The notes under the pieces are model-generated. The model saw only the letters and a list, made by a program, of their open reading frames with translations, did no database searches and had not been told where the DNA came from. A DNA stretch of 37,017 bases from a virus, in IMG/VR virus record IMGVR_UViG_3300048687_000120, positions 1 through 37,017 of that record. One strand, 5' to 3'. Positions 2,848-37,017 of the stretch are shown here, in pieces. Position 1 is the first letter of the stretch. Each line of letters starts with the position of its first letter. The translations under genes and the position numbers were made by a program.

Positions 2848-3099
2848 TCACTCCTCGCCGAGGACCTCGGCACGTGCGGCGTCGGCCTTGCGGTTGAGTA
2901 CGCCCGTCATCCTGAACACGATGAACGTGAGCAGCAGGAACACGACGACGAGCAGCACCTGTGTGATCACCGAGACGACGGCGACGTGTCGTGTGGCGCT
3001 GGCGATGATCGCCGTGATGCCGATGCCGGAGATCCAGCCGAGCCAGAGTCGGATCTTCTCGGCTCTGACGGCCTTCTGCACTTCGCTGTAGCTGGCCAT
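2848..3099 (-). CDS. Small membrane protein (2 predicted TM helices)
   Basis: MASYSEVQKAVRAEKIRLWLGWISGIGITAIIA…VLLVVVFLLLTFIVF. ATG 3099 is preceded by GGGGGGAACC (SD-like). The track ORF extends to GTG 3111. Confidence 0.6.
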   Translation of the reverse strand: MASYSEVQKAVRAEKIRLWLGWISGIGITAIIASATRHVAVVSVITQVLLVVVFLLLTFIVFRMTGVLNRKADAARAEVLGEE

Positions 3100-3123
3100 G
3101 GTTCCCCCCACGGTGATGGTGTG

Positions 3124-3564
3124 TCAGGGGTTCATGATGCCGCGCGTGAGGCTGGCCGGTACATGGGTTCCGATCGCTGCCATGACGGCGCGGGCGCAGG
3201 CGACGTAGTCGGCGCGGACTGCCTGTATCTGGTCGCTCCAGTCGCTGTCCGGGAACCGGTTGGCGTGGATGGCCCGGGCTGCGCGCAGCACCAGGTCCTC
3301 GTCGCTCACGGCCGGGGCGTGCAGGTCGACGACGTAGCGGTACACGGGCTTGCCGCCGTTGCGCTCCCGGGCGCGGGCCGAGGTGAGTTCGGCGTGCGTC
3401 CAGGTGACGGTGCCGCGGTGTCCGCTGGGGAAGCGGCATTCGAAGCGGTCGGGGGTGGTGGGGACGCCCATGGCCTGGTTGTCGATGCGGGCCTTGGTGA
3501 GTGCTTCGACGCGGTCGGCAATGGTGCGGAGCTGGCGGGGGGTGAGGCTGTTGTCGACGGGCAC
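3124..3564 (-). CDS. Hypothetical protein
   Basis: 146-aa ORF. GTG start with AGGAG 6 nt upstream. Balanced composition, unlike the overlapping Pro/Arg-rich shadow ORFs. Confidence 0.6.
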   Translation of the reverse strand: MPVDNSLTPRQLRTIADRVEALTKARIDNQAMGVPTTPDRFECRFPSGHRGTVTWTHAELTSARARERNGGKPVYRYVVDLHAPAVSDEDLVLRAARAIHANRFPDSDWSDQIQAVRADYVACARAVMAAIGTHVPASLTRGIMNP

Positions 3565-6265: not shown

Positions 6266-6688
6266 CTACGGGCGCCACTCCTCGCGGTAGCCGGGCCGGT
6301 CCGCGTACACGGCGGCGAGGGCGGCGAGGATGGGTGAGTCGTCAGTCTGTGGATCCCAGCCCCCCATCATGCGGCGGCGCTCGGCGGCGTACCGCTTGTG
6401 CTGCTCAATGATCTGCCGCTTGGCGTCGATCTCGCGCAGCACCCGGGCCGGATCCCACCGTTCGATGTGCCGGCCCACCCCGTCGTCATCGGCGTTGTAC
6501 GGGCTCACGTTCACCACGCCATCGTCCAGGTAGTCCACGATGACGTACTGCTCGTAACGGGCCTGGGGTGGGCGGGCAGTCCATACGTCCGACTGGTCAT
6601 CCCAGCAGGCCGCGCGCGCAATCCGCTCGTCCTCGTCGATCTGCTCGCCGAGCCACTGCACCAGGTCCATGCCCTGAGTCTGGCGCAC
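6266..6688 (-). CDS. DUF6221-like protein (actinobacterial/phage family ending …PGYREEWRP)
   Basis: 140 aa: …ARVLREIDAKRQIIEQHKR…LAALAAVYADRPGYREEWRP. The family is assigned from memory of this C-terminal signature. Confidence 0.6.
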   Translation of the reverse strand: MRQTQGMDLVQWLGEQIDEDERIARAACWDDQSDVWTARPPQARYEQYVIVDYLDDGVVNVSPYNADDDGVGRHIERWDPARVLREIDAKRQIIEQHKRYAAERRRMMGGWDPQTDDSPILAALAAVYADRPGYREEWRP

Positions 6689-6712: not shown

Positions 6713-6940
6713 TCAGGGGCGCCAGTCCTCGTGGTAGCCGGGCCGGTTGCGGTAGGCGAGGGCGAGCACGCGGTCGATGTCGTCGTCGTGGCGGGCGAAC
6801 AGCCGGCGCCGGGCGTCGGTCTCGCGCAGCAGTGCGGCCACCGGGCCGTCGTCCGGGGCGGCCTGGGCGCGGGCGTCGTCCGCGGCGAGCTGCCGGTCCA
6901 GCCAGCCGCGCAGTCCAGGGGTGTGGTCGTCGGCATCCAT
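6713..6940 (-). CDS. Short DUF6221-like paralogue
   Basis: 75 aa from ATG 6940 (SD GGAAGGGGG): MDADDHTPGLRGWLDRQL…LLRETDARRRLFARH…LALAYRNRPGYHEDWRP. It has the same C-terminal signature as the neighbour. Confidence 0.6.
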   Translation of the reverse strand: MDADDHTPGLRGWLDRQLAADDARAQAAPDDGPVAALLRETDARRRLFARHDDDIDRVLALAYRNRPGYHEDWRP

Positions 6941-7065
6941 CGGCTGCCCCCTTCCGCTTGAACCCGTCAACTCTGCCAGTCGACCGCGGGTGATCGCAGG
7001 GTGGATAGCACACGGGTGCCGGGCGCGGATCGGCCCGGGTGCCGTCCGGCGCCGGGAGCCGGGAG

Positions 7066-7074
7066 CTAGGTTCT
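7066..7074 (+). promoter_or_regulatory. Third copy of the switch-region operator half-site CTAGGTTCT, 6 nt upstream of the parA ATG
   Basis: The exact 9-mer also occurs at 14494-14502, and as its reverse complement at 14469-14477. Confidence 0.45.
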
Positions 7075-7079
7075 CGACC

Positions 7080-8009
7080 ATGACGCGAATCGACAGAACG
7101 CCGCTGCCCGCGTTGTCCGGGCCGCCGGGCGACCGGCTCGAGGTCGTCTCCGCCTTCGACGAGGAGATCCCCTACCAGGCGTGGCGCGCGGAGCTGTACG
7201 TGCCGCCGACGTTCCGCCCGGGCCAGGTGGCCATCACCTATGTGGTGGTGAACCAGAAGGGCGGCGCGGGCAAGACGATCACCACCGTCGAACTGGCGGC
7301 GGCGTGGGCGGCACGGGGCCGGCGGGTGCGGGTCATCGACGCCGACCACCAGGAGGCGGCGCTGTCGATGTGGCTGCTGCCGCAGTACCCGGAAGGTGCG
7401 CCGCGGCACTCGCTGCGGTCGGTGTTCTTCGACGAGGCGAGCCTGGCCGAGGCCACCTATCCGACCCGGTTCGCCGGGATCGACATCGTGCCGTCCGGGA
7501 TGGACCTGCAGCGGGTGGAGTACGAGCGGCCGATCGGCGCCGAGTCCGCGCTGGCGCAGGCCCTGGCCGCGGAGGAGGCGGACGCGGGCGGCCGCGCCCC
7601 CTACGACGTGACGCTGATCGATGCGGCGCCGTCGCTGGGCCTGGTCACGGTGGCCGCGCTGACCGCGGCCCGCAAGGCGCTGGTGCCGGTGAAGGTGGGC
7701 GGCCTGGACCTGAAGGCGATGGCGTCGCTGCACAAGACGATCCGCAGCGTGCAGCGCAAGACCAACCCGAAGCTCGGGGTGGACGCGGTGTTCCTGACCG
7801 CGTGGGACAAGAGCGACTTTGCCCGGCAGCTGGCGGCCCAGGTGAGCCAGGACTACCCGGAGGCGGTCGTGGTGCCGGTGCGGCGCAGTATCCGGGCGGC
7901 CGAGGCGCCGCTGTCGGAGGAGCCGGTGCGCCTGTACGCGCCGAAGTCGACGACGGCGTCCGACTACGACCAGGCGGCCGACGTGCTGCTCGAGGGGGTG
8001 GCCCGGTGA
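7080..8009 (+). CDS. parA: ParA/Soj-family partition ATPase
   Basis: From ATG 7080: …VAITYVVVNQKGGAGKTITTVELAAAWAARGRRVRVIDADHQ… (deviant Walker A KGGxGK[ST]). The track ORF is extended upstream to 6777. Confidence 0.85.
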   Translation: MTRIDRTPLPALSGPPGDRLEVVSAFDEEIPYQAWRAELYVPPTFRPGQVAITYVVVNQKGGAGKTITTVELAAAWAARGRRVRVIDADHQEAALSMWLLPQYPEGAPRHSLRSVFFDEASLAEATYPTRFAGIDIVPSGMDLQRVEYERPIGAESALAQALAAEEADAGGRAPYDVTLIDAAPSLGLVTVAALTAARKALVPVKVGGLDLKAMASLHKTIRSVQRKTNPKLGVDAVFLTAWDKSDFARQLAAQVSQDYPEAVVVPVRRSIRAAEAPLSEEPVRLYAPKSTTASDYDQAADVLLEGVAR

Positions 8010-8950
8010 GCGCGCGGCGCCTGCTGACACTGCCGTCCACGGTCAGCGAGGAGAGCGAGGAGAGTGAGGAGTCCGGCGGCCAGCTCGGGCTGCCCGGGCA
8101 GGCCACGGGGGTGGTGGCCGAGTTGACCGGGGCCGATGTCTCCTCGGTGGTGTCGGTGCAGCAGCTGCCCGCCCCCTACGACGTGGCCGCCGAGGTTGCG
8201 GGGCCGCTCAGTGCGAAGGAGCGCGGCGACCTCGAGCTGTGCGAGCAGGCGCTGCACGGCTTCCGCAAGGCGCTGATCGTGGCGGGCAAGGCGCTGGAGG
8301 TCATCAAGCGGGGGCGGCTGTACCGGGAGACGCACGCGACGTTCGAGGACTACGTGATGGAGGCGTGGGGGTTCAAGCGGGCGCACGCCTACCGGCTGAT
8401 CGACGGGTGGCCGGTGGCCGCCGCGATGTCTCCAATTGGAGACATCAACGAGGCGCAGGCCCGCACGCTGCTGCCGGCCTGGAGGGGGCACGGGCCGGAT
8501 GCCACGGCCGTGCTGTACCGGGAGGTGCGCGAGCTCAGCGGCGGGAAGGTGACCGCGGCCGCGCTCGAGCAGGCGGTGCAGGTACTGCCCAAGCGGCTCG
8601 CCGCACCGGAGCAGGCGGCCGACGTGCTGCGGGTGGCCGCCGCCGAGGGCCGGGTGCCGCTGATCGTGCCGCCGCGTGTCGCGGCGCGGGCCGTCGTCGA
8701 CGAGCCGGCCGGGGACGAGGCCACGGACCCCGGGGTGGAGGCCATGGCGGTGCTCGAGGCCGCCCTGGCGCAGCAGCGGCAGATCTACGACCGGCTCGCC
8801 GGGGTGGTGCCCGCCGCGCTCGCCTTCGATCCGGGGCGGGCCGAGGTGTTGCTGGCCGAGCTGCGCCAGTACGCGAAGCGCACCGGCTATCGGGCGAAGG
8901 GTCGGAGCAAGGGCGGGGGAACACCGGAGGAGGATCAGGGGGAGGATTGA
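8006..8950 (+). CDS. ParB-like / HTH centromere-binding partner candidate
   Basis: GTG 8006 overlaps the parA stop (GTGA). Contains …IKRGRLYRETHATFEDYVMEAWGFKRAHAYRLIDGW…, which resembles ParB/KorB-type HTH regions. No clear ParB N-terminal GERRxR box seen. Confidence 0.5.
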   Translation: MSARRLLTLPSTVSEESEESEESGGQLGLPGQATGVVAELTGADVSSVVSVQQLPAPYDVAAEVAGPLSAKERGDLELCEQALHGFRKALIVAGKALEVIKRGRLYRETHATFEDYVMEAWGFKRAHAYRLIDGWPVAAAMSPIGDINEAQARTLLPAWRGHGPDATAVLYREVRELSGGKVTAAALEQAVQVLPKRLAAPEQAADVLRVAAAEGRVPLIVPPRVAARAVVDEPAGDEATDPGVEAMAVLEAALAQQRQIYDRLAGVVPAALAFDPGRAEVLLAELRQYAKRTGYRAKGRSKGGGTPEEDQGED

Positions 8951-11658: not shown

Positions 11659-12669
11659 CTACAGACCGGAGCCGATGAACCTGCGTCGCGCGGGTGCGGC
11701 CACGGTCGCCTGCACCGCGGAGTACAGGCGCAGATCACGCACCCAGTTGGGCAGGCACTTGACCCAGGAGTCGGCGCCGCCGGTGTTCTTGAAGATGTCT
11801 GCCTCGAGCAGCTGCTGCTGGGCGTCGTCCATGTCGGCGATCTGCGGCCATCCCTGATCGCGCATCGCGCGCAGCAGCAACGGGGCGCACTTGCGGGCGG
11901 TAGCTGCCCCTGCCTGCCAGGTGGTCATCTGCTGCAGGAAGACCTCGGCGTTCCGGGTTTGCTCCGGAGAGAATCCCTCCCCCTCCGCTCGTTGCTGCGC
12001 CGTGCTCTTGGCGTGCGTGAGGGGGTTGGGGGAGGAGGAATCCTCCTCCTCCGGGGGGTGTGGGGGGGGAGCGTCCGATCCGGACAGGGTGTCCCGATCG
12101 GTCTGACCTGCGGCGTTGGGTGATTTCCGATCGGGACAGGGTGTCCCGATCGGCGCCGATCCGGACAGGGTGTCCCGATCGGCCTGACCTGCGCATCCGG
12201 ACAGGGTGTCCCGATCGGAAGCGGCGTTGGCCTCCCCATCGGGACAGGGTGTCCCGATCGGCCTGACCTGCAGTGCTTCCTGGACGCCGCCGCGGACATA
12301 GGCGGCGTTGTTGGCGGGGTTCCGGTAAACACGGAACACCCACTCGGGGCGCTTCGTCTCCGGGTTGTACTCCCGCTTGTGTTCCACGTGGCCGGCCTTC
12401 TTCAGCCGTCGCATGATCTTGCGGAGGTCGCGTTCGCTGAGCGTCCAGCCGCCCGTCCGGAACTCGTCGAGCAGGCCGAGGATGCTGGACGGCTGCTTCG
12501 GGTCACGGAGCAGCAGGCGGATGAGGACGCCGTAGTCGTCGAAGTCGAGGTCCGGTGAGAGCGCGAGGGCGTACGGAATGACGACCTCCTCCGGCGGCTC
12601 CCACATCCGGATGACCCGGGTTGCGGCGAAGCCAGGACCAAAGGTGTCCTGCGTGGCGTCTTGCGCCAT
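11659..12669 (-). CDS. Replication initiator candidate (winged-helix-like N-domain; iteron-containing CDS)
   Basis: From ATG 12669 (SD AGGAA): …DDYGVLIRLLLRDPKQPSSILGLLDEFRTGGWTLSERDLRKIMRRLKKAGHVEHKR…. It lies immediately upstream of the helicase gene and contains the 5x20-bp repeat array. Confidence 0.55.
   Translation of the reverse strand: MAQDATQDTFGPGFAATRVIRMWEPPEEVVIPYALALSPDLDFDDYGVLIRLLLRDPKQPSSILGLLDEFRTGGWTLSERDLRKIMRRLKKAGHVEHKREYNPETKRPEWVFRVYRNPANNAAYVRGGVQEALQVRPIGTPCPDGEANAASDRDTLSGCAGQADRDTLSGSAPIGTPCPDRKSPNAAGQTDRDTLSGSDAPPPHPPEEEDSSSPNPLTHAKSTAQQRAEGEGFSPEQTRNAEVFLQQMTTWQAGAATARKCAPLLLRAMRDQGWPQIADMDDAQQQLLEADIFKNTGGADSWVKCLPNWVRDLRLYSAVQATVAAPARRRFIGSGL
12082..12261. repeat. 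Five exact 20-bp iterons GGACAGGGTGTCCCGATCGG (candidate origin of replication)
   Basis: Copies start at 12082, 12134, 12163, 12199 and 12242. Each is the core of a 23-25 bp near-palindrome (C/G)ATC(C/G)GGACA-GGG-TGTCCCGATCG. Confidence 0.7.
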
Positions 12670-13193: not shown

Positions 13194-13643
13194 TCACCTC
13201 TGGCCATGATCTGCAGCCACGAGGCGAGGACTCTCGCCGCCCATTTCGTGTACGGCGCGCTGCACCGTTTCGACTGGATCGCCGAACGATGTCAGGTCGA
13301 ACCACTCGCCCCGTACGCGGTAGGCCGCGAACCGTCGGTGCAGTTCTCTCTCGTACTTCCCGGTCGTGGACCAAAGAAGAGAGAGCGTCATCGGCTGACC
13401 AGTTTGGAGGGCCGCCAGGCGTCTCTGTGGGTCCAGAGTGGTGTGCCCGATCTTGACAAGGTGGGTGTGCTCCGCGCCGATCAGGTACGTCCTGGGGACT
13501 TCCTGCATTCGCTGCCACTTGCGTTCCAAGGCCGATGCCCGACCGGGGAGCAGCGGACGAAAGCGCTCGTTGTTCTTCCTAGGCGCCTCGACACCTCCGA
13601 CGATGAGGTAGCGGCCCGGATCCTCATAGTCGTACTTCCGCAT
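13194..13643 (-). CDS. T5orf172 / GIY-YIG-superfamily (MUG113-like) domain protein
   Basis: 149 aa from ATG 13643: …TYLIGAEHTHLVKIGHTTLDPQRRLAALQTGQPMTLSLLWSTTGKYERELHRRFAAYRVRGEWFDL…. Confidence 0.65.
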   Translation of the reverse strand: MRKYDYEDPGRYLIVGGVEAPRKNNERFRPLLPGRASALERKWQRMQEVPRTYLIGAEHTHLVKIGHTTLDPQRRLAALQTGQPMTLSLLWSTTGKYERELHRRFAAYRVRGEWFDLTSFGDPVETVQRAVHEMGGESPRLVAADHGQR

Positions 13644-18092: not shown

Positions 18093-19124
18093 GTGAAGGT
18101 ACCCGGAGAGGACACCACCGCTCCGAACGACGTCGACCAGATCCTCGGCGACGCCTTCCGGCAGTGGTGGAAGCCGGTCACGCGCTTCATCTGCACACGC
18201 GTCGACAACCGCCACCGCATGCACGCCGAGGACCTCGCCTCCCGCACCTTCGAGGAGTACTGGCGCTTCCTCGAATCGGGAAAGCGACCGCAGGGCCCGG
18301 TATGGGGACTGCTGTGCACGATGGCACGCCAAGCCATCTCGGAGTTCTACCAGGCGTTCAGCAACCGCCTCGAGTCCTCCTGCGACTTCACCGACCCGGC
18401 CAACCGCAGCATCGCGGCCGGCCACGCCTACGCCCCCGCCTCCCCGACCCTGGCCGAACTGAGCGCCGAACTGGACGCGGCCACCGCCGAGATGGAGACC
18501 ACGTCGGCTCTCTGGCGGAAGCTGCACGCCGAGTGCACCAAGGTCTACTCCCGACTGCAGCAGTCCCAGACCGCCCGCACGACGGACCGCCTGACCGCTG
18601 CGCTACGGCAGGCCGACCAGGACGCCGCGGCGCAGCTCGTCGTCTTCCGCGCCGCCTGCCACCGTGTCGGCACGCTGCGCGCCGAGATCGAGGCCGCCGC
18701 AGGTCCGCACTACCGGTCGGTGGTCGTCCAGCCCGAGGTGCCGAACCAGCGCAGCCGGCCGCACACGGTCGTCAGTGACCCGACCCTCACGCACTGCCGC
18801 ACCGGGCACCGCATGACCCTGCACAACACCCAGTTCCACGCAGACGGCACCCGTGCCTGCCGCGCCTGCAAGCACGCTCAGCACCGGCAGCGCGAGGCCG
18901 CATCCGACACCCCGAAGAACGCGCCCACCGCCCTGAAGTGCACGCCCGCTCTGATTGCCCGCGCCCGCCGGCTGTTCGCCGCCCCGGCCGCCGCTAACAG
19001 GACCCTCGCCGACCTCGGACAGGAGCTCGGCGTCAGCGTGCGCGTCCTGCGCAAGCACATCCCCGACCTCACAGAGCTGCGCCACCAGGCGCGCACCGCC
19101 GCCTTGGCAGGTACTGCCCGATGA
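18093..19124 (+). CDS. Sigma-70/ECF-like transcription factor candidate with an internal Cys/His cluster and a C-terminal HTH
   Basis: GTG 18093 (SD AAGGAA). …HAEDLASRTFEEYWRFLESGKRPQGPVWGLLCTMARQAISEFYQ… resembles sigma region 2. …RTLADLGQELGVSVRVLRKHI… resembles a region-4 HTH. …HCRTGHRM…TRACRACKH… lies between them. Confidence 0.45.
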   Translation: MKVPGEDTTAPNDVDQILGDAFRQWWKPVTRFICTRVDNRHRMHAEDLASRTFEEYWRFLESGKRPQGPVWGLLCTMARQAISEFYQAFSNRLESSCDFTDPANRSIAAGHAYAPASPTLAELSAELDAATAEMETTSALWRKLHAECTKVYSRLQQSQTARTTDRLTAALRQADQDAAAQLVVFRAACHRVGTLRAEIEAAAGPHYRSVVVQPEVPNQRSRPHTVVSDPTLTHCRTGHRMTLHNTQFHADGTRACRACKHAQHRQREAASDTPKNAPTALKCTPALIARARRLFAAPAAANRTLADLGQELGVSVRVLRKHIPDLTELRHQARTAALAGTAR

Positions 19125-20605
19125 CCACCACCCCCGAGAGGACCACCCCCGTGCGCACCACCCCCGCCTCCGCACCGGCAGCCCCCGCCACCCGCGAAGA
19201 CCACGACCAGGCCCTCCGCGACATCGCCCAGCTCGAGTCCATCGAGCAGGGCCTCACCCGTGTCCTCGTCATCCTCGGCATCGGCGGGCTGATCTTCACC
19301 GCCGTCAACGTCACCCTGTTCGCCATCGAACACGACACGCACCGGGCCATCGCCTGGATGCTCGACCCGCTCGTCTCCCTCTCCCTGCTCGCCGCGCTGT
19401 TCATCGACGGACGCCTCGCCGCCCACGGCTACAAGCCGGGCGGCTGGCCGTTCGTCCTGCGCTGGTTCGCCGGCCTCACCACCTGGCTGATGAACTGCTG
19501 GGGCGCCCTGTACCCGGGCGGGAAGTTCACCGGCTGGCCCGACCGCGCCGACCCGGCCGGCCTGGTGCTGCACTCCGCGATCCCGTTCCTCGTCATCGTC
19601 CTGGCCGAGGCGGGCGCCGGCTGGCGCCGGTTCACGCTGCGGAAGAAGCCCGAGTACCAGGCCGTCGTCGACGACTGGAAGAACCGTGAGGCCGAGCGCC
19701 GCCGCATCGCCACGGAGAAGCGGGAGAAGGAGGACCAGCGGCTCCGCGACGAGGCGGAAGCCGAGCGGAAGCGCGCCGCGGATCTCGAAGCGGAGGAGCG
19801 GAAGCTGACCGCGGAACTGGCGGCGGAGGAGAAGCGCGCCGCGATCGAGACGGCAAAAGCGCGGGACCTCGCCGACGCAGAAACGCGGCGGATCCAAGCC
19901 GAGGTCGAGGCAAAAGCGCGGACCGCGGAACTGGACCGCGAAACCGCGGAAGCGCAGGAACGCGCCGCCGCAGAAGCGCGGGAGCAGCAGGCCCGCATCG
20001 ATCGCGAGAACGCGGCGCACGCCGCCCGCCTGGAGCAGGATCGCATCGCAGCAGAAGCCGAGGCGGAAGCCGTAAAGGTCAAGGCCGCGGACGAGGCGCG
20101 GGCCGCCGAGGAGGTCCGCCTCAAGCGCCGCGAAACCGCGGAAGCGCGGCGCGCTTCCACCGCGCTTCCGGCCGCGGAACCCGCCGCGCTTCCGGCGAAG
20201 GCGACCGCGCTTTCGACCGCGATTCCGTCCGAGGCGACCGCGATTCCGACCGCGGAACCGACCGCGCCTTCGCATCCCGGCACCGCGCTTCTGTCCGACC
20301 AGGCGACCGCGATTCCGCGGAAGCTGACCGCGGTTCCGCACCGCGATTCCACCGAAGCGGACGACGTACGCGGCGCCGAGGCCAAGCGCCGGCAGATCGA
20401 GGAGGCCAACCTCGAGGCCGCGATCCTGCTCACCCTCGACCGGGCACCGACCCGCAAGGACTTCGCCGCCGGCTACGGACGCGGCGAGACGTGGGGACGG
20501 GACCGGTACGCCGACGCACAGCGTCTGCTCGCCGAGGACGAGGCGTTCGCCGCCAAGGTGCAGGCCGAGGCCGAGCAGCGCACCGCCGCCCTGGTCACCG
20601 CCTGA
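19121..20605 (+). CDS. DUF2637 / SpdB2-like polytopic membrane protein with a long charged coiled-coil and a repeat-rich C-terminal half
   Basis: About 4 TM helices at the N-terminus (…VLVILGIGGLIFTAVNVTLFAI…, …LVSLSLLAALFI…, …FAGLTTWLMNCWGAL…, …LHSAIPFLVIVLAEA…). These are followed by an E/R/A-rich region and TA(I/L/V)P repeats. Confidence 0.6.
   Translation: MTTTPERTTPVRTTPASAPAAPATREDHDQALRDIAQLESIEQGLTRVLVILGIGGLIFTAVNVTLFAIEHDTHRAIAWMLDPLVSLSLLAALFIDGRLAAHGYKPGGWPFVLRWFAGLTTWLMNCWGALYPGGKFTGWPDRADPAGLVLHSAIPFLVIVLAEAGAGWRRFTLRKKPEYQAVVDDWKNREAERRRIATEKREKEDQRLRDEAEAERKRAADLEAEERKLTAELAAEEKRAAIETAKARDLADAETRRIQAEVEAKARTAELDRETAEAQERAAAEAREQQARIDRENAAHAARLEQDRIAAEAEAEAVKVKAADEARAAEEVRLKRRETAEARRASTALPAAEPAALPAKATALSTAIPSEATAIPTAEPTAPSHPGTALLSDQATAIPRKLTAVPHRDSTEADDVRGAEAKRRQIEEANLEAAILLTLDRAPTRKDFAAGYGRGETWGRDRYADAQRLLAEDEAFAAKVQAEAEQRTAALVTA
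20135..20350. repeat. Dense array (at least 12 copies, both orientations) of the motif ACCGCG-NN-T(T/C)C(C), including 3 exact GACCGCGATTCCG
   Basis: Copies include 20216-20226, 20237-20247, 20249-20259, 20261-20271, 20282-20292, 20306-20316, 20327-20337 and 20340-20350. Spacings are 12-24 bp, most often 21. Related GACCGCGGAACTGG occurs twice near 19807 and 19921. Confidence 0.7.
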
Positions 20606-20648: not shown

Positions 20649-20950
20649 CGGCGTGTCCGGGCTACGCACGCGCGGTAGCCGTCCGGCGGGCCGGGACCGC
20701 CTACTTACTACTTACCGACCGGGGGAGAAAGCCCCCGATGTCCGATTCTCGGGCCGGATCGGCAGGAAGTAGCGCTCTTCCGGGCCGGTCGGTAAGAAGT
20801 CAGTAACTCGGCGACGTGACGCGGGGTGACGAATCGTCATCATCACATTGCCGGGAGAAGGTGATGATGCGGGCCCCAACGCGCGCGCGCGACGCGCGTG
20901 CGCGAGGGAAGCACAACCGGTGACGCAGCGTCAAGGAATTCCGGGCAGCG

Positions 20951-20992
20951 AAAAGGCCCCCGCGGCACCCGTGTTGGGCGCCGCGGGGGCCT
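20951..20992 (-). terminator. Canonical rho-independent terminator for leftward (late) transcripts
   Basis: 13-bp perfect stem AGGCCCCCGCGGC (20954-20966) / GCCGCGGGGGCCT (20980-20992). On the minus strand it is followed by TTTT (complement of AAAA 20951-20954). Confidence 0.65.
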
Positions 20993-21232
20993 CGTCCGTT
21001 CTTCCTCCCACTTCCTCCCCCCAGGCAGGAGAACCGCCGTTCGCCCTTGTGACGTGGCCGGACGTGATGGCGACCGTGTCAGGGGGAGGGAGGAGGAGAA
21101 GCCACCACCGCCTCACGGCGGGGCGTGGCGGCGCCTCTGGCGGGCTTTCAGCCCATCGGCGGCGCGGAGTCCGCGCGCGCCTCTGCTGTCCCGGCAGACG
21201 GGCGCTGAGTGCGACTTGGCCAATCCGTGGCA

Positions 21233-21883
21233 TCACGGGTACTGGCGGCGCTGAGGATCCAACGCGGCCGCAGACGGGGACGGCTGCCCGTCGTCGTCCG
21301 GTGCCGGTGCACCATCCCGGCGGCAGACGAGCGCGTCGGGGTCGCCGGGCGGGGTCTGCAGGCTGTACCCGTCCGGGCAGGTCTGCCCGTCACGGCCATC
21401 GGCCCCGTCTTTTCCGGCGGCGCCGGCGGGGCCTGGCTCGCCCTGCGGTCCGGCCGGCCCTGGCTCGCCCTGCGCGCCTGGAGCGCCCGGTGTTCCGGCG
21501 GCGCCACTCGGGCCGGTCTTGCCCACGCCATCGGTTCCCTTCGCGCCGTTGTCGCCGTCGCTGCCGTTCTTGCCCGGTGATCCGGACGGTCCCGGGCTGC
21601 CCGGGTTTCCCGGTTCACCCTGCGCGCCGCGCGGACCCTGTATCGAACGGCCAGGGGTGCCGCGGCTCCCGGGCGGGCCAGCCACGGGTGTGCCGCCCAT
21701 CCGCTCGACCTGCCGGGCCAGCTGGTCACGCGCCTCGTTCGCCGTCCGCAGGTCGTCCGTCATCGCCTGCACCGTCAGCACGATCCAGGCGACGGCGATT
21801 CCCAGCGCGATGGCGCCGAACACCGCGAAGACGTCTCCGCGGCGCCAGCGCCGTTCCTCCGCCCGGATCTGGCCGCGCGTCAT
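21233..21883 (-). CDS. Membrane-anchored collagen-like (Gly-X-Y repeat) protein
   Basis: 216 aa from ATG 21883 (ATGA overlap with the upstream gene). N-terminal [23 protein letters not shown], a short coiled segment, about 30 G-X-Y triplets ([25 protein letters not shown]…[19 protein letters not shown]; nt ~21383-21679), and a Cys-containing C-terminal domain. Confidence 0.75.
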
Positions 21884-22176
21884 GACCCCGCCCCCTGGGT
21901 GAGCAGAATGATCACCGGCAGAAGGATCCCGACCAGCGGCACCACGACCGCACCGATCAGCCACCTCCTGGTCGCGACCAACTTCTCGGACTCCTTCTCC
22001 CGCAGGGTCTCCAGCGTGCTGACCCGCGCGGTTAGTGCCTCGTGCCGCAGGTCGTAGATCCGGGCGTCGACTTTCTCGTCGAGGCGGTGGCCGAGCTGCT
22101 GGATGTCGTCGCGGACATCGGCGAAGCGGTCTTCGAATCGGCGTACGACCTCGCCTAGCGTCGGCTCATCAGCCAC
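21880..22176 (-). CDS. Tail-anchored membrane protein with a coiled-coil N-domain (lysis-cassette position)
   Basis: 98 aa; GTG 22176 with AGGAG SD. …[41 protein letters not shown]. Confidence 0.55.
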
Positions 22177-22193
22177 CGCTCAACTCCTGTCTG

Positions 22194-22379
22194 TCAGGCG
22201 TCCTGCGTGGGCTGCTTGTTGGGCACGCTGAAGACGATGCCCCAGGCAGCGAGGACGGCCAGCGCGATGATGACGCCCTCGCCGCTGGTCAGGGTGCCGT
22301 CCTGTACGGCGGTGACGGCGGCGGTGGCGCCCGCGGCGAGAGCGCCGACGATGGACTTGGCGATGCTGGAAACGCGCAT
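22194..22379 (-). CDS. Holin-like small membrane protein (2 TM)
   Basis: MRVSSIAKSIVGALAAGATAAVTAV…GVIIALAVLAAWGIVFSV…. ATG 22379 has a GAGGA SD. The track ORF extends to GTG 22391. Confidence 0.5.
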   Translation of the reverse strand: MRVSSIAKSIVGALAAGATAAVTAVQDGTLTSGEGVIIALAVLAAWGIVFSVPNKQPTQDA

Positions 22380-22433
22380 GGGGATCCTCACTTCTTGGGG
22401 GGACTTGAACGGGTCGGGCGGGAGGCGAGCCGC

Positions 22434-30828: not shown

Positions 30829-31815
30829 CTACAGCGTCGCGTCGGTCGAGATGTACTCGATCTTCGGCTGGTTGGTGCCGTCGTACAGGGCCGTGAAGTT
30901 GAACGTCGGCTTCACGACGCCGAAGCCGTCGACGACCGGCGGCCCTTCGTCGAGCTTGACCACCGGCAGTGTGATCCGGAACGTCTCGAAGAACGTGGTG
31001 GCGATGTTCGGGCCGACGAACTCCCACACCAGCGACGTGCCGCCGTCGGTCGTGTGCAGGTCGTCCAGGGTCGTGGCGACGTAGTCCGTCTCCAGGCTGC
31101 CGCTGATCTTGACCTGATCATTGCTGATCGGTTCCTTCTTCAGCCCGGACTGCCCGGCGTAGAACCGCTCGACCTCCTGCGGCCGCTCGATCTTGCAGCT
31201 GACCTTGCGGATCCCGTCCAGCGCGGTCTCGGTGCCGAACGTGCCGGTCTTGACCGCCATCTGCCCGAAGTGGAACGGCGACATCGCCGCATACGAGGCG
31301 GCCGCCAGTGTCTGGCCCTCGTCGACGTCCTTGCCGTCGAACTCGAAGCTGCCGGTCAGCATGCCGCCGGTCTCGCACGCGAACTCGCCAGACGTGATCT
31401 TGCAGCCGAGGAACGTCTTGTCGGTGACGGTGCCCGTGGTCAGCGGGACGCCCTTCTGGATCGTGAGGCTCTTGCCCGCGGTGTCCGCCAGGGTGTGCGT
31501 CTGCAGGTACGCCGGCCCGGCGCCCTGCTGCACCGGCGTCACGGTCGTGCCCATGAGGGACTGCAGCAGCAGCCCCATGTTCTTGTTGGTCACCTCGATA
31601 TCGACGGACCCCGCCACCTCGCGACGGGTCACCACCCGCCGGGAGGACAGCGCCAGCAGACGGCCGGCCGCGATGCCCGAGGACTGCGCCGTCGTCTTCT
31701 TCAGCTGCAGTCCTTCCTTGGTGAACTCGATGAACTTCGTCGGCGCCACGAACGTGCCGTACGTCGTCTCTGCGCTGATACCGATTTGGGCACCCAGCCC
31801 GGATCCGATCGCCAT
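30829..31815 (-). CDS. Major tail protein
   Basis: 328 aa, beta-rich, Gly/Thr-rich (MAIGSGLGAQIGISAETTYGTFVAPTKFIEFTKEGLQLKK…). Position is upstream of the chaperone/tape-measure genes. Confidence 0.7.
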   Translation of the reverse strand: MAIGSGLGAQIGISAETTYGTFVAPTKFIEFTKEGLQLKKTTAQSSGIAAGRLLALSSRRVVTRREVAGSVDIEVTNKNMGLLLQSLMGTTVTPVQQGAGPAYLQTHTLADTAGKSLTIQKGVPLTTGTVTDKTFLGCKITSGEFACETGGMLTGSFEFDGKDVDEGQTLAAASYAAMSPFHFGQMAVKTGTFGTETALDGIRKVSCKIERPQEVERFYAGQSGLKKEPISNDQVKISGSLETDYVATTLDDLHTTDGGTSLVWEFVGPNIATTFFETFRITLPVVKLDEGPPVVDGFGVVKPTFNFTALYDGTNQPKIEYISTDATL

Positions 31816-33375: not shown

Positions 33376-34593
33376 TCAGGTGGCCGCGCCGGTGAAGACC
33401 TTGACGGCGCCGGTCTGGTCGACGAGTAGGCCGTCCGCGCGGATGATCGCGCGGAAGGTGGTCAGGTCGGAGTTGAACGCGTAGTCGTCGGAGCGCTCGA
33501 AGCGGACCCCGCCGGCCAGGCGCACGAAGTACTGGCTGAAGTCGCCGAACGCGACGGACTTGGCGTTGGTCGCCGTGGCGGCCATGTTCGGGTCGGTGTA
33601 CACCGGCTTGCCGAGCAGCAGGTCCGGGAGGCCGAGCTGGATGGAGGGCTGCCACAGGTACTGCCCCTGGCTGTCCTTCAGCTTGCGGGCCGCGCCCAGC
33701 GAGGCGTCACGCATCAGCCAGCCGCACGAGGTGCTGTTGCGGTACGGGGCGATGACCGAGTGGTACAGGTCGATCAGGTTGTCCGCGGTGAACGCGCCCG
33801 CCACGCCGGTGCCGCCGGTCACGCCCGCCGATGCGGAGGTGACGACGCCGATCGGCTTGGACGAACCGTCACCGGTGATGGCGTGCACGCCGAACGCGTT
33901 GCCCAGCGCCCGCCCGGCCTGCATGGCGAGGTAGCCCTCGAGGTCGACGCCGGTGTCGTTGAGCAGCTCGAACGATGCCTGCATGAGGACGCCGTACTTG
34001 TAGGCGCCGAGCGTGCGCTTGGCGAACGCCGGGTCGGACTCGCTGATCGCGGTGGCCTCGGGCGTGATGGACGCCGAGGAGTGCGCGGTGGTGACCGGGA
34101 TGTCGATGTTCTCGCCGGACGCCGTGTTGAGGACGGTCGGCCCGGCCATCATGATCCCGGACACCTCGACGAGGTGGGCCATGAGCTGGCCGTAGAACGT
34201 GGTGGGGACGGTGTTGCCGCCCGCCGTCGCGGTGCCCTTGGTCAGGTCACGGAAGGCGACGCCCTGCGGCGCCTCGATGTTGACGCTGCGCTGCTCGCCG
34301 CGCGCCCACCGGCGCAGCTCGGAGTCCTCCCCGGCCGGGGCCTGCCGCTCATCGGCCGGCTTGGAGAGCAGGACGGCGAACGCCGCCAGGGCGTCCTGGT
34401 TGCGCTGCTCGGCGTCGACGAGCTGCTTGGCCCGCGCGTCGATCTTGTCGAGGTCGGCGTTCAGCGCCTGGTACGACGCCTCCTCCTCGCCGGTGAGGTC
34501 GCGGCCCTCGGCGTCGGCGGTGTCGAGCAGTGCCTTGGTCTGCTCCCACACGTTCTGGCGCCGCTCCTGCAGCGCCTTGATGTTGCTGGACAT
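33376..34593 (-). CDS. Major capsid protein, HK97 family
   Basis: 405 aa from ATG 34593 (SD AGGAGGG). The N-terminal coiled delta-like region (MSSNIKALQERRQNVWEQTKALLD…) is followed by a typical HK97-fold body (…YGQLMAHLVEVSGIM…FERSDDYAFNSDLTTFRAI…). Confidence 0.85.
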   Translation of the reverse strand: MSSNIKALQERRQNVWEQTKALLDTADAEGRDLTGEEEASYQALNADLDKIDARAKQLVDAEQRNQDALAAFAVLLSKPADERQAPAGEDSELRRWARGEQRSVNIEAPQGVAFRDLTKGTATAGGNTVPTTFYGQLMAHLVEVSGIMMAGPTVLNTASGENIDIPVTTAHSSASITPEATAISESDPAFAKRTLGAYKYGVLMQASFELLNDTGVDLEGYLAMQAGRALGNAFGVHAITGDGSSKPIGVVTSASAGVTGGTGVAGAFTADNLIDLYHSVIAPYRNSTSCGWLMRDASLGAARKLKDSQGQYLWQPSIQLGLPDLLLGKPVYTDPNMAATATNAKSVAFGDFSQYFVRLAGGVRFERSDDYAFNSDLTTFRAIIRADGLLVDQTGAVKVFTGAAT

Positions 34594-34677
34594 CTGCCCT
34601 CCTGGGCATGACGACGGCACCCGCGACCGGTGGCCGGGGTGTCAGGGATGGATGGTCGAGGTGGGTGTCGCCCTGCC

Positions 34678-35424
34678 TCAGAAGGTGCGGCGCTTCATGA
34701 GCTCGGCGCGTCGCTGCCGGTTCGCGAGCGTCGGGTGGGTGTCGCCCTGCCCGTCGCCGTGCGGAGTCTTGGGGTCTGCTGCCTGCCGCAGGGCCGCCTC
34801 GAGGCGGCTCGGGTCCGCGTGCAGGTCGATCGTGATCGTGTTCTTCGCGCGGTCGAGGAACCGCTCGAGGCGCCCGTCCTCGGCGGCCGCCCGCACCTCG
34901 GCCAGGTCCGCCTCGGCGTGCTCGGCCAGCGAGCGCAGCCCGGTGGACGTATCGAGGTAGGCGGGGGTGTTGACGGGGGCGACGTCGACCAGGCGGCCGG
35001 ACAGCAGCGTCCGCACCGGGAACCCGTCGTCCGTCATCCCCCAGTCGTCATCGAACGTGTAGAACGCGAAGCTGGAGCGCTGTACGTCGCCGCGCTGCAC
35101 CAGCTCGTACACGTCCGCGCGGGCGGCCGGGACGTCCACGCTGTAGTCCAGCCCGGTGCCGTCCGTGAGCAGCCGCAGCGTGCCGCCGGCGGTCGTGCCC
35201 AGCAGCATGTTGTCGTCGTGGTTGTAGCGGGCCATGGCCTCCGGCCAGCCGTCGCCCTCGGACTTGGCGAAGAAGCCGGGGTCGATCCGTTCGACGAACC
35301 CGCCGAGGTTGCGGCTGAGCGCGTTGTACTTGGCGGCGTACCCGCCGATCGTGCGCGTGCTGTCGCCGGCCGCCCGCACCTCGACAATGCCGCGGGTGAA
35401 CCGGCGTTCCTGCTGCTCGTTCAT
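34678..35424 (-). CDS. HK97-family prohead protease
   Basis: 248 aa: …IGGYAAKYNALSRNLGGFVERIDPGFF…ARYNHDDNMLLGTT…GDVQRSSFAF…, between the portal and capsid genes. Confidence 0.8.
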   Translation of the reverse strand: MNEQQERRFTRGIVEVRAAGDSTRTIGGYAAKYNALSRNLGGFVERIDPGFFAKSEGDGWPEAMARYNHDDNMLLGTTAGGTLRLLTDGTGLDYSVDVPAARADVYELVQRGDVQRSSFAFYTFDDDWGMTDDGFPVRTLLSGRLVDVAPVNTPAYLDTSTGLRSLAEHAEADLAEVRAAAEDGRLERFLDRAKNTITIDLHADPSRLEAALRQAADPKTPHGDGQGDTHPTLANRQRRAELMKRRTF

Positions 35425-36725
35425 GGTTCCTCCGTGACCGGGGGTGGGGTGAATGTGCCGGTGAGATTCGCGCCGACCTGGTTGAGGATCTGCCGGGCCT
35501 CGTCGGGGGTGAGCAGTACGCCCACTCCCGCACCGAGCTTGCCGATCATCTCGACGAGGTTGCGGGCGTTGGCCTGCTCCGGATCGAGGGACACGGACAG
35601 CGCGTTGGACAGCGGCAGGTAGGTCTGGCCGAGCCCGTTGGGCAGCGGTGGCTCGTCCTCGATAGCGCGGACCTCGTCGCGGTTACGCCAGCCCTGATCG
35701 AGCGCCAGGCCGTGGGCCTGTACGCGCGACAGCAGGTCGGTGCGCAGCATCGCGTCCGGGTTGAACTTCACCTCGTGATCGGGCGGCAGCAGCAGCGAAA
35801 ACGCCGCCTCCAGGCGGGCCAGCCACGGGCGCAGCGTCCAGGTGAGCAAGTCGATGCTGTTCTGCTCGACGGTGGCGTAGGTGAGGCTGCCGCCGGTCTC
35901 GCCGCCGACCTTCTCCGGGGGCACGCCGTAGATGGCGGCCACCTGGTTCGCCGAGGCCTTGATGGTCTCCAGGAACTGCGACTCCTCGGCCGGCACGGCG
36001 ATCGGCCGGTATTTCACATCGAGGCCGAGCACGGCCACGTCGCGGCCCGTCGCGGCCTCTTTGAACCGAGCCTTGAGGATCGTCGCCTGCTCCTTGGTGA
36101 CGTCCCGGTCCGTCTCCAGGACCGCGGCCGGGGTGGAGCCGTTGGCGAACCAGTCCCGCCCGTACTGCTGGGCAAGCAGGCCCGTCTCGGTGGTGGAGGC
36201 GAAGTAGGCAACCGGGGACAGGCCGAGGATCTGCCCGGGCAGCGTGTACGCCGCCACGTGGAACAGTTCCCCGGGCTCGAGCCGGCGGCCCTTGTAGTAC
36301 CAGACGGGGACCGTGGCGAAGTTGTCCTGGATGCTCACGTCGTCCGGGTGCAGCCACTCGATCTGTGACGGGTAGCCCGTCCGGTCGGTGGCGACGATCA
36401 GCCCGTAGGCGTTGCCGCGCAGGGCCAGCGAGGTCATGCAGCGGTGCAGCCAGTCGTAGCGGCTACCCGATGCGGCGGGGGTGCGCAGCACGTCGGGCAG
36501 CGGAAGACGCAGGCGGCTGTCTCCCGCGTCCCGGTAGACCTTCAGCGGCAGCGACGCCACCGCGTCGGACAGGATCCGGGTGGCGGAGTACACGGGCGCC
36601 AGGCGCAAGGCCTGCTCCTGTGTCGTGCCGCGCAGCCCGTTGACCGGGCCCCCGGAGCCCCACACGTCCTGGAACGACAGCGCCCGCTGTTCCTGCGCCT
36701 TGCGGCGGAAGGGCCACCACCTCAT
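35421..36725 (-). CDS. Portal protein, HK97 family
   Basis: 434 aa directly downstream of terL: …APVYSATRILSDAVASLPLKVYR…LALRGNAYGLIV…. ATGA overlap with the protease gene. Confidence 0.85.
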   Translation of the reverse strand: MRWWPFRRKAQEQRALSFQDVWGSGGPVNGLRGTTQEQALRLAPVYSATRILSDAVASLPLKVYRDAGDSRLRLPLPDVLRTPAASGSRYDWLHRCMTSLALRGNAYGLIVATDRTGYPSQIEWLHPDDVSIQDNFATVPVWYYKGRRLEPGELFHVAAYTLPGQILGLSPVAYFASTTETGLLAQQYGRDWFANGSTPAAVLETDRDVTKEQATILKARFKEAATGRDVAVLGLDVKYRPIAVPAEESQFLETIKASANQVAAIYGVPPEKVGGETGGSLTYATVEQNSIDLLTWTLRPWLARLEAAFSLLLPPDHEVKFNPDAMLRTDLLSRVQAHGLALDQGWRNRDEVRAIEDEPPLPNGLGQTYLPLSNALSVSLDPEQANARNLVEMIGKLGAGVGVLLTPDEARQILNQVGANLTGTFTPPPVTEEP

Positions 36726-36735
36726 AACTGCCCCC

Positions 36736-37017
36736 TCACCAGACCGCGTTCATGATGTCGCCGGGATACTCGACCTCGGCGCCGAGTCCCCACTTGGCCA
36801 GCGTCACGGCCACCAGGGGGGAGATATCGACACCGACGCCACGCCGGGCCCACGCCCAGGCGTCGCCCAACGGACGCTTCTGTGCGCCCGCCAGGGCCAT
36901 GGCCAGGGGCGCGTTGTCGATGTGGGAGAGAGCCTGCTCGGTGACCGCGTCGTAGAACTGACCGCAGGCCGCGCCGACTTCCCGCACCTTGGGCTGGACC
37001 ACCGTGATGCCGAGCCG
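36736..37017 (-). CDS. terL: Terminase large subunit, C-terminal part (same gene as 1..1378 through the circular junction; about 510 aa in total)
   Basis: Track ORF 36736..37002 (…VQPKVREVGAACGQFYDAVTEQALSHIDNAPLAMALAG…) is in the same frame (coordinate mod 3) as the ORF leaving base 1. Residues encoded by 1-127 are the same as those encoded by 36891-37017. Confidence 0.9.
   Translation of the reverse strand, partial: RLGITVVQPKVREVGAACGQFYDAVTEQALSHIDNAPLAMALAGAQKRPLGDAWAWARRGVGVDISPLVAVTLAKWGLGAEVEYPGDIMNAVW
36891..37017. repeat. Terminal direct repeat, copy 2 (identical to 1..127)
   Basis: Same 127-nt string as the window start (ccagggccatggccaggggcgcgttgtcgatg...gtgatgccgagccg). Confidence 0.95.

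Follow-up and report, generated by a model that had tools for sequence, protein, structure and literature searches.

A Streptomyces plasmid-phage that appears to carry an endolysin-less version of a common prophage lysis cassette

The window analysed here is the whole 37,017-nucleotide (nt) IMG/VR virus record IMGVR_UViG_3300048687_000120, an element whose genes identify it as a Streptomyces plasmid-phage. Its late operon ends, downstream of the last tail-fibre gene, with three genes for small membrane proteins: a holin-like protein of 61 amino acids (aa), a 98-aa coiled-coil protein and a 216-aa collagen-like protein (Table 1). The explanation we favour, and hold to be probable though well short of certain, is that these genes are an endolysin-less version of a lysis cassette common in Streptomyces prophages, and that virions are released by wall hydrolases acting in trans, or are released inefficiently. 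In its full form this cassette consists of an endolysin, a small holin, a tail-anchored coiled-coil protein and a translationally coupled, type-II membrane collagen-like protein. A canonical holin-endolysin cassette contains a hydrolase gene, and that of the element has none.

The comparison with relatives that have the same tail module locates the missing gene. Twenty genome loci were collected through the 813-aa tail protein, and 13 IMG/VR loci through the 171-aa fibre protein. In 30 of the 31 informative loci (18/19 genome; 12/12 IMG/VR, with the same module of tape measure, 813-aa, 184-aa and 171-aa proteins) an endolysin gene separates the fibre gene from the holin or 98-aa-like gene, and the fibre homologues that precede it are 35-71% identical to the 171-aa protein. 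The slot enzymes are freely swapped among Amidase_2/PGRP amidases, GH25 lysozymes, CHAP peptidases and amidases like gp22 of phage OnionKnight, and in many relatives the next gene is a homologue of the 61-aa protein. In the element the same position is a spacer of only 54 nt. Two relatives have unusual genes at the endolysin position, namely a BNR/sialidase-like 381-aa protein with unexplained sequence in L027 (9271-10416), the one informative locus with no recognisable endolysin there, and a 330-aa open reading frame (ORF) lacking a Pfam match together with an Rv2179c-like 184-aa protein in L050 (JGI 3300049165, 6739-8282); these may be unconventional lysins.

The spacer carries what may be a scar left by the clean loss of the endolysin ORF. 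At its 3' end, AAGAAGTGAGGATCCCC and the holin ATG after it correspond to the final codons, stop codon and Shine-Dalgarno sequence of the amidase-holin junction in L014, and its 5' half bears CCCGCCCGACCCG, a motif that recurs in the fibre-to-lysin spacers of relatives. This footprint is suggestive only, because the motifs are short and G+C-rich; the G+C content of the window is about 70%. The fibre-to-holin junction is reproduced in a second, independent assembly, the Logan contig L031 (11,536 nt, 100% identical), and misassembly is therefore unlikely.

Both window ends (1-127 and 36891-37017) consist of the same 127 nt, an exact direct repeat that falls within the large terminase gene. This makes the genome a circle of 36,890 bp in which this gene is intact once the ends are joined, and the absence of an endolysin consequently applies to the whole genome. 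The overlap has a length that suggests an assembler k-mer. Searches with Pfam (46 ORFs), PHROGs (30 ORFs) and NCBIfam (10 ORFs) revealed no muralytic family, a tblastn comparison of seven endolysins from relatives with the window in full gave a best E value of 0.11, and five further ORFs compared with the PDB by phmmer gave nothing below E 0.1. The untranslated gaps of the element are too small or non-coding. The initial annotation, made from the sequence alone, had recognised no muralytic protein in 36.9 kb, and all profile, tblastn, PDB and AlphaFold/Foldseek searches agree with it.

The three cassette genes largely have the anatomy first described for them. The holin-like protein, whose gene call on L031 independently gives 61 aa, would be 65 aa long if a GTG at 22391 were used. 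It had been described as a 61-65-aa protein with two transmembrane (TM) segments, and the size stands; by hydropathy (Kyte-Doolittle, 19-aa window) there is one strong TM segment at about residues 34-51 (score 2.31), and the first is weak, the N-terminal helix being Ala/Gly-rich, weakly hydrophobic and under the threshold of 1.6. The protein has no match in Pfam, PHROG or NCBIfam. It is 70-77% identical to the product of the small gene directly after the endolysin in six relatives (L014, L020, L021, L025, L026 and L041), and is thus a small membrane protein at the late-operon end that is orthologous to endolysin-adjacent genes.

The coiled coil and C-terminal TM segment reported for the 98-aa protein are likewise found, with one strong membrane segment at about residues 72-92, and the protein is probably tail-anchored with its coiled coil in the cytoplasm. 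PHROG 38457 matches it over its full length, PHROG 1193 'hemolysin' does so weakly (E 0.0033, with no stretch passing alone), and Pfam XhlA (PF10779) does not match at E <= 0.1. Its gene follows the holin after a short gap and overlaps the collagen-like gene as ATGA, as had been noted.

The 216-aa protein would be a type-II membrane protein, with a basic N-terminus (RRWRRGD) before a strong membrane segment at about residues 18-38, a short coiled coil, Gly-X-Y triplets, a hairpin between two cysteines and a C-terminal LDPxRRQY motif. The N-terminal TM segment, the cysteine-containing C-terminal domain and the roughly 30 triplets placed at about nt 21383-21679 in the initial annotation are all present; we count 32 triplets in three runs at aa 69-168 (nt 21380-21679), which match Pfam Collagen (E 2.8e-13). 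Cys169 and Cys187 are invariant in 22 homologues. An AlphaFold2 model has a long helix (3-61), extended repeats and a small beta-hairpin (173-189) between the cysteines; since the C-terminal part is about 50 aa and is modelled as this hairpin, the protein is predicted to have no room for an enzyme. The model gave nothing significant in a Foldseek search of BFVD, and PADLOC and NCBIfam searches of the cassette proteins found no relevant family, with Scl/Lcl adhesin matches in NCBIfam sub-threshold and due to the repeats. The late terminator that had been proposed is also there, as a candidate hairpin about 235 nt past the collagen stop. It was missed by a simple terminator scan, which requires five T, as the hairpin is followed by four U; an 81-nt segment around it has a folding free energy of -54.5 kcal/mol (z -6.2).

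Homologues of the last two genes are widespread, and they occur beside ordinary endolysins. In OnionKnight (OQ938575) the order is gp22 endolysin, gp23 holin, gp24 and gp25, where gp24, annotated 'holin', is 88% identical to the 98-aa protein and gp25 is 59% identical to the collagen protein over its full length. The 98-aa protein belongs to a family of more than 600 clusters (80-100% identity), which all come from Streptomyces and lie mostly on chromosomal contigs. In the contexts that were opened, which comprise chromosomal prophages and metagenomic or read-assembly contigs (L005, L008-L010, L051), the order is Amidase_2 endolysin, 105-123-aa membrane protein, 98-aa protein, collagen-like protein and operon end. 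OnionKnight and the prophages thus resemble the element in the 98-aa/collagen pair, the ATGA-type overlap and the late-operon end, but differ in having an endolysin (gp22 amidase or Amidase_2) and an 88-123-aa holin upstream, the 61-aa holin of the element being a different protein. Database members of the collagen family number more than 2,300, are 205-225 aa long and conserve the basic N-terminus, hydrophobic anchor, juxtamembrane helix, invariant Cys pair and C-terminal LDPxRRQY. The premise that collagen repeats in phages usually belong to tail fibres and not to membrane-anchored proteins needs correction in the light of this anchored family. Because the pair follows an ordinary endolysin and holin in OnionKnight and the prophages, it appears to be a regular, uncharacterised component of Streptomyces prophage lysis cassettes and no replacement for an endolysin. 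A novel lysis effector in the three genes, one of the possibilities first raised, is not indicated by these results, and the other branch, that the element does not lyse conventionally, stands best. Vondra gp22-like proteins, which also have a coiled coil and a C-terminal TM segment, were considered as relatives of the 98-aa protein and are analogues only (hhalign probability 2.4%).

The lack of an endolysin extends to other members of the lineage. Synteny with the circular plasmid unnamed3 of Streptomyces sp. NBC_01259 (NZ_CP108470, 36,685 bp, finished genome) extends over the whole element, at 30-75% aa identity. The backbone of the element also has proteins in common with pFP4 (NC_017833), reportedly the Streptomyces plasmid-phage of Chen et al. 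2012, Plasmid 68:170 (recombinase 75%, GntR 61%, a 218-aa protein 63% and a helix-turn-helix protein 72% identical). The synteny and the common backbone proteins together identify the element as a Streptomyces plasmid-phage, and partition genes are indeed found with a complete virion module on a circular replicon. In NZ_CP108470 the fibre gene is followed by a 57-nt gap, a 102-aa homologue of the 98-aa protein and a collagen-like gene, with no small holin. A third member, L046 (IMG/VR UViG_3300025917_000044), is identical to the element at 77% (GntR), 71% (ParA) and 64% (ParB-like), and its fibre gene is followed by an ORF of some 80 aa, the gene of a 116-aa protein that has a coiled coil and a C-terminal TM segment, and the collagen-like gene. 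The seven endolysins matched neither NZ_CP108470 nor L046 by tblastn.

The tail-anchored and collagen-like genes are the only cassette genes kept in all three endolysin-less elements; the collagen gene is present in 3/3 plasmids and in about 12/32 relatives, an enrichment that is not significant (hypergeometric p about 0.07). The three are far apart in sequence and the virion genes are intact in each, so the loss appears to be old or recurrent in this backbone and compatible with persistence, as a trait of the lineage. pFP4 is like the element in being a circular replicon with ParA, a full virion module, no annotated endolysin and common backbone proteins, but has a different virion module, primase-polymerase and DUF927 replication genes, TraB for conjugation and no homologue of any cassette gene. 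Past its last tail gene there is no annotated lysis gene, neither the seven endolysins nor the three cassette proteins matched it by tblastn, and the whole backbone family may be without conventional lysis genes. The pFP4 tail module ends with a beta-helix protein (L047, NC_017833.1, 20-2503 and adjoining origin region).

We propose that the enzyme module was cleanly deleted from the cassette of this plasmid-phage, leaving the spacer. Late in the lytic cycle the 61-aa holin, probably with the 98-aa protein, would damage or depolarise the membrane, and the wall would be opened by peptidoglycan hydrolases encoded outside the element, either host autolysins freed from control by the loss of membrane potential or lysins of co-resident prophages. 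Alternatively, release may be poor and the element may persist mainly as a partitioned plasmid. The conserved ATGA coupling suggests that the 98-aa and collagen proteins act together; they would probably form a membrane complex with an accessory, non-enzymatic role, in which a trimeric collagen rod passes through the wall. The rise of a collagen helix is 0.286 nm per residue, and 32 triplets correspond to a rod of about 27 nm, which is of the order of the thickness of a Gram-positive wall. The tightly conserved length of the collagen protein would fit a role as spacer or ruler, and accessory lysis, surface or exclusion functions and a fibre are the possibilities for the rod. Rather unlikely, and offered tentatively, is the idea that the lineage is released without an endolysin of its own by using the 98-aa protein and collagen rod as an envelope-spanning device that triggers or recruits host wall hydrolases, or that times release to the developmental autolysis of the mycelium. 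Loss of membrane potential can activate autolysins, and LytA has a part in the release of the pneumococcal phage SV1 (PMC6116005). This precedent for the recruitment of host autolysins by holin action supports the proposal that hydrolases act in trans.

Several points weigh against this explanation. Two of the three endolysin-less plasmids also lack the small holin, which fits a decaying lysis function equally well. The mean pairwise dN/dS (ratio of non-synonymous to synonymous substitution rates) of the element's holin is 0.56 against 0.33 among its endolysin-linked homologues, a noisy estimate over 60 codons that hints at relaxed constraint. We know of no established case of a tailed phage that dispenses with its own endolysin in a walled host. 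An enzyme with an unknown fold may thus be hidden, as about 15 ORFs have no annotation and a structure model was made for one of them (146 aa).

The first competing explanation is that the element is a lysis-defective plasmid-prophage heading for domestication or decay, inherited vertically by partition and retaining its cassette genes as leftovers. The loss of the endolysin in three members and of the holin in two of these, the hint of relaxed constraint, and a full maintenance set (ParA, ParB-like protein, iteron-like repeats, DnaB-like helicase and tyrosine recombinase) all accord with it. We nevertheless think it unlikely, since three members at such low identity have all kept intact virion modules, which would be unexpected for useless particles. 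In comparison with OnionKnight, moreover, dN/dS is 0.11 for the 98-aa gene, which appears to be under strong purifying selection; it is 0.32 for the collagen gene and 0.19 for its C-terminal part. Domain searches found no TraB (FtsK/SpoIIIE) translocase domain in any window ORF, whereas pFP4 has one, and with TraB absent from the element and from the sister plasmid L003, particles are the only obvious horizontal route. Beside its TraB gene, pFP4 encodes a DUF2637 (Spd-like) protein.

Quite improbable, in our judgement, is that lysis is conventional and depends on a muralytic enzyme of unrecognised fold, encoded by an unannotated ORF or contained in a tail protein. There is room for such an enzyme, because no family matches the ORFs of 184, 170, 155, 146, 116, 111, 132, 163 and 257 aa or the greater part of the 813-aa protein, and the slot in relatives accepts very different enzymes and holds unusual genes in L050 and L027. 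However, the proteins singled out as places where an endolysin domain might yet be recognised, namely the tape measure, the 813-aa protein and the product of the 146-aa ORF (3124..3564), yielded no such domain in the searches. The tape measure matched only another tape measure protein in the PDB (phmmer) and only tape-measure families in Pfam and PHROGs, and a profile of the 813-aa family (16 sequences) matched only LamG domains in the PDB. The 146-aa protein was modelled confidently by AlphaFold2 (predicted local distance difference test score 81.5) with no known fold, its best Foldseek match in the PDB having an E value of 0.57, and it is conserved only over the first 85 residues or so, its N-terminus being 81% identical to the pFP4 counterpart. 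In the ORFs common to the three plasmids, neither a signal peptide nor an enzyme-like motif is visible. Relatives also have the tail and head ORFs alongside separate endolysins, so that these ORFs are no substitutes, which leaves the suggested effector in a tail protein without support.

About equally improbable is a role of the collagen-like protein, helped by the 98-aa protein, as a virion fibre or as a surface protein of lysogenic conversion (superinfection exclusion or adhesion), its place near lysis genes being incidental. PHROG 18350 'tail fiber protein' does match almost its full length (E 8e-29, residues 18-215), and PHROG 1806 bears the name 'collagen like minor tail'. The pair directly follows fibre genes in the three plasmids, is retained where endolysin and holin are lost and so has a function independent of them, and occupies the operon end, a common moron site. 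However, it is probably the collagen repeats alone that account for the PHROG names, a signal-anchor helix with positive-inside flanks, as conserved at this N-terminus, is not a trait of virion fibres, the pair follows endolysin and holin in canonical prophages and does not lie among tail genes, the ATGA coupling to a tail-anchored membrane protein is kept across relatives, and PADLOC gave no match.

The proposed endolysin-less cassette can be compared with several known systems. The short protein XhlA of Bacillus subtilis PBSX combines an N-terminal coiled coil with a C-terminal TM segment, and the 98-aa protein has the same architecture (about 90 aa, coiled coil, C-terminal TM segment) and holin neighbourhood, a likeness that is one of analogy only. 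The XepA-XhlA-XhlB-XlyA cassette of PBSX is, like that of the element, a monoderm prophage cassette with extra non-enzymatic proteins, but it has the amidase XlyA, and XepA is a soluble pentamer and not a collagen-like membrane protein. In one account, which cites Krogh 1998, XhlA is reported to be essential for PBSX lysis (PMC6834076). In F1 mycobacteriophages a holin-like protein with two TM domains and a protein with a single one, LysF1a and LysF1b, are both needed for efficient lysis (PMC13056207). The resemblance here is by description only, and unlike the situation in the element, LysF1b has an N-terminal TM domain (N-out, C-in) and the phages encode LysA and LysB. The PBSX and LysF1 cassettes indicate that extra membrane proteins are frequent in monoderm and actinobacterial cassettes.

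In phage lambda, the lysis cassette ends with the gene of Rz, a type-II membrane protein whose external domain is an extended rod and whose C-terminal cysteines are conserved. The collagen protein has a similar topology to this i-spanin, but its host is monoderm, no o-spanin lipoprotein accompanies it, its collagen rod is not an alpha-helical coiled coil, and there is no sequence similarity. No gene with a lipobox, as needed for an o-spanin partner in a two-component spanin, was found in or beside the cassette, and the relatives are all from Streptomyces or other actinomycetes. Scl1 and Scl2 of streptococci and Lcl of Legionella resemble the collagen protein in being collagen-like stalks on the bacterial surface; they are secreted or have an LPXTG anchor, and bear large globular heads, whereas the collagen protein has an N-terminal TM segment and a hairpin head of about 20 aa.

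The rest of the window is divided between a complete HK97-type virion module on the minus strand, in which every gene is intact, and a plasmid-type backbone (Table 1).

Table 1. Cassette genes, virion module and backbone features of the element
Feature	Position (nt)	Strand	Basis or remark
Candidate late-operon terminator, 18-bp G+C-rich hairpin then UUUU	~20950-20998	-	Inverted repeat I2
Collagen-like gene, 216 aa	21233-21883	-	ATG overlaps 98-aa stop as ATGA
98-aa gene	21880-22176	-	GTG start, AGGAG 7 nt upstream, 17 nt past holin stop
Holin-like gene, 61 aa from ATG	22194-22379	-	GTGAGGA 5 nt upstream
Empty endolysin slot, 54-nt spacer	22380-22433	-	Relatives have a 0.8-1.0-kb endolysin gene there
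Last tail-fibre gene, 171 aa	22434-22949	-	GC-frame analysis, start choice; PHROG 13144, 30320
Fibre-associated protein, 184 aa (the 171-aa product above is the other)		-	
LamG tail protein, 813 aa	23454-25895	-	
Tape measure, 1255 aa	25895-29662	-	Pfam/PHROGs
Tube	30829-31815	-	Pfam/PHROGs
Capsid	33376-34620	-	Pfam/PHROGs
S78 protease	34678-35424	-	Pfam/PHROGs
Portal	35421-36725	-	Pfam/PHROGs
Chaperone	within virion module	-	
ParA and ParB-like genes	7080-8950		
Rep-like gene, 399 aa	11659-12858	-	
494-aa protein	19121-20605	+	Multi-TM N-terminal region, then very long charged coiled coil
Tyrosine recombinase, DnaB-like helicase, GntR regulator, sigma-like protein			Further backbone genes

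Within the Rep-like gene, a 27-nt palindrome, CCGATCGGGACAGGGTGTCCCGATCGG, is present in five copies at 12075-12272, spaced by 29-52 nt and translated as a recurring DRDTLSG motif. These iteron-like copies likely mark a replication origin inside the gene. The 494-aa protein has a counterpart in L003 at the corresponding position, a 406-aa membrane protein. The 630-nt non-coding region between the convergent 494-aa and collagen genes contains a 21-nt inverted repeat (20702-20722 and 20785-20805, 90% complementary, arms 62 nt apart). A T5orf172/MUG113 (GIY-YIG-like) gene at 13194-13643 on the minus strand, seen via the gene calls on L031, has a lower G+C content at third codon positions than its neighbours and is probably a recent insertion. 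Two tandem DUF6221 paralogues (6266-6688 and 6713-7081, minus strand) lie beside the recombinase and the divergent parA/parB-like genes.

Between the HNH/terminase genes and the conserved 146-aa gene is a slot whose occupant, a small envelope protein, differs from plasmid to plasmid: an 87-aa protein with two TM segments in the element (2848-3111, minus strand) and unrelated lipoproteins in L003 (25724-26002) and L046 (about 19690-20040). The slot is moron-like and may carry superinfection-exclusion cargo. We rejected the 87-aa protein and the neighbouring 146-aa ORF as a second holin-lysin pair, given the lipoproteins at this site in the sister plasmids, and the 146-aa protein as its lysin partner, given that it has no enzyme-like fold.

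A nucleotide search of phages with the structural half gave a sole match of 139 nt of the tape measure, in Vondra-like phages. More members were sought in IMG/VR and a metagenome collection with the 343-aa sigma-like protein, as a single sequence and then as a three-sequence alignment, and only the known contig and a 1.3-kb fragment were found. Two further plasmids were rejected as relatives. That of NBC_01335 (34.5 kb), considered as a third member, is a different phage with an integrase and a peptidoglycan-binding endolysin, and the S. anulatus plasmid NZ_CP109525 has only ParA in common with the element and is a MobF conjugative plasmid, not a phage.

To our knowledge the endolysin is seen as a universal feature of tailed phages that infect walled bacteria. 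If a complete and apparently functional lineage lacks it, this would show either that release can be outsourced to host enzymes or that plasmid-phages can drop lysis while virions are kept. The interest of the finding would be high if particles are released, and moderate if lysis is defective in the lineage or an enzyme has escaped recognition. Direct tests are possible, as OnionKnight forms plaques on S. lividans and Streptomyces sp. NBC_01259 carries a sister plasmid. The 98-aa/collagen pair, present with tightly conserved length in hundreds of Streptomyces prophages, would in addition be an uncharacterised part of actinophage lysis cassettes.

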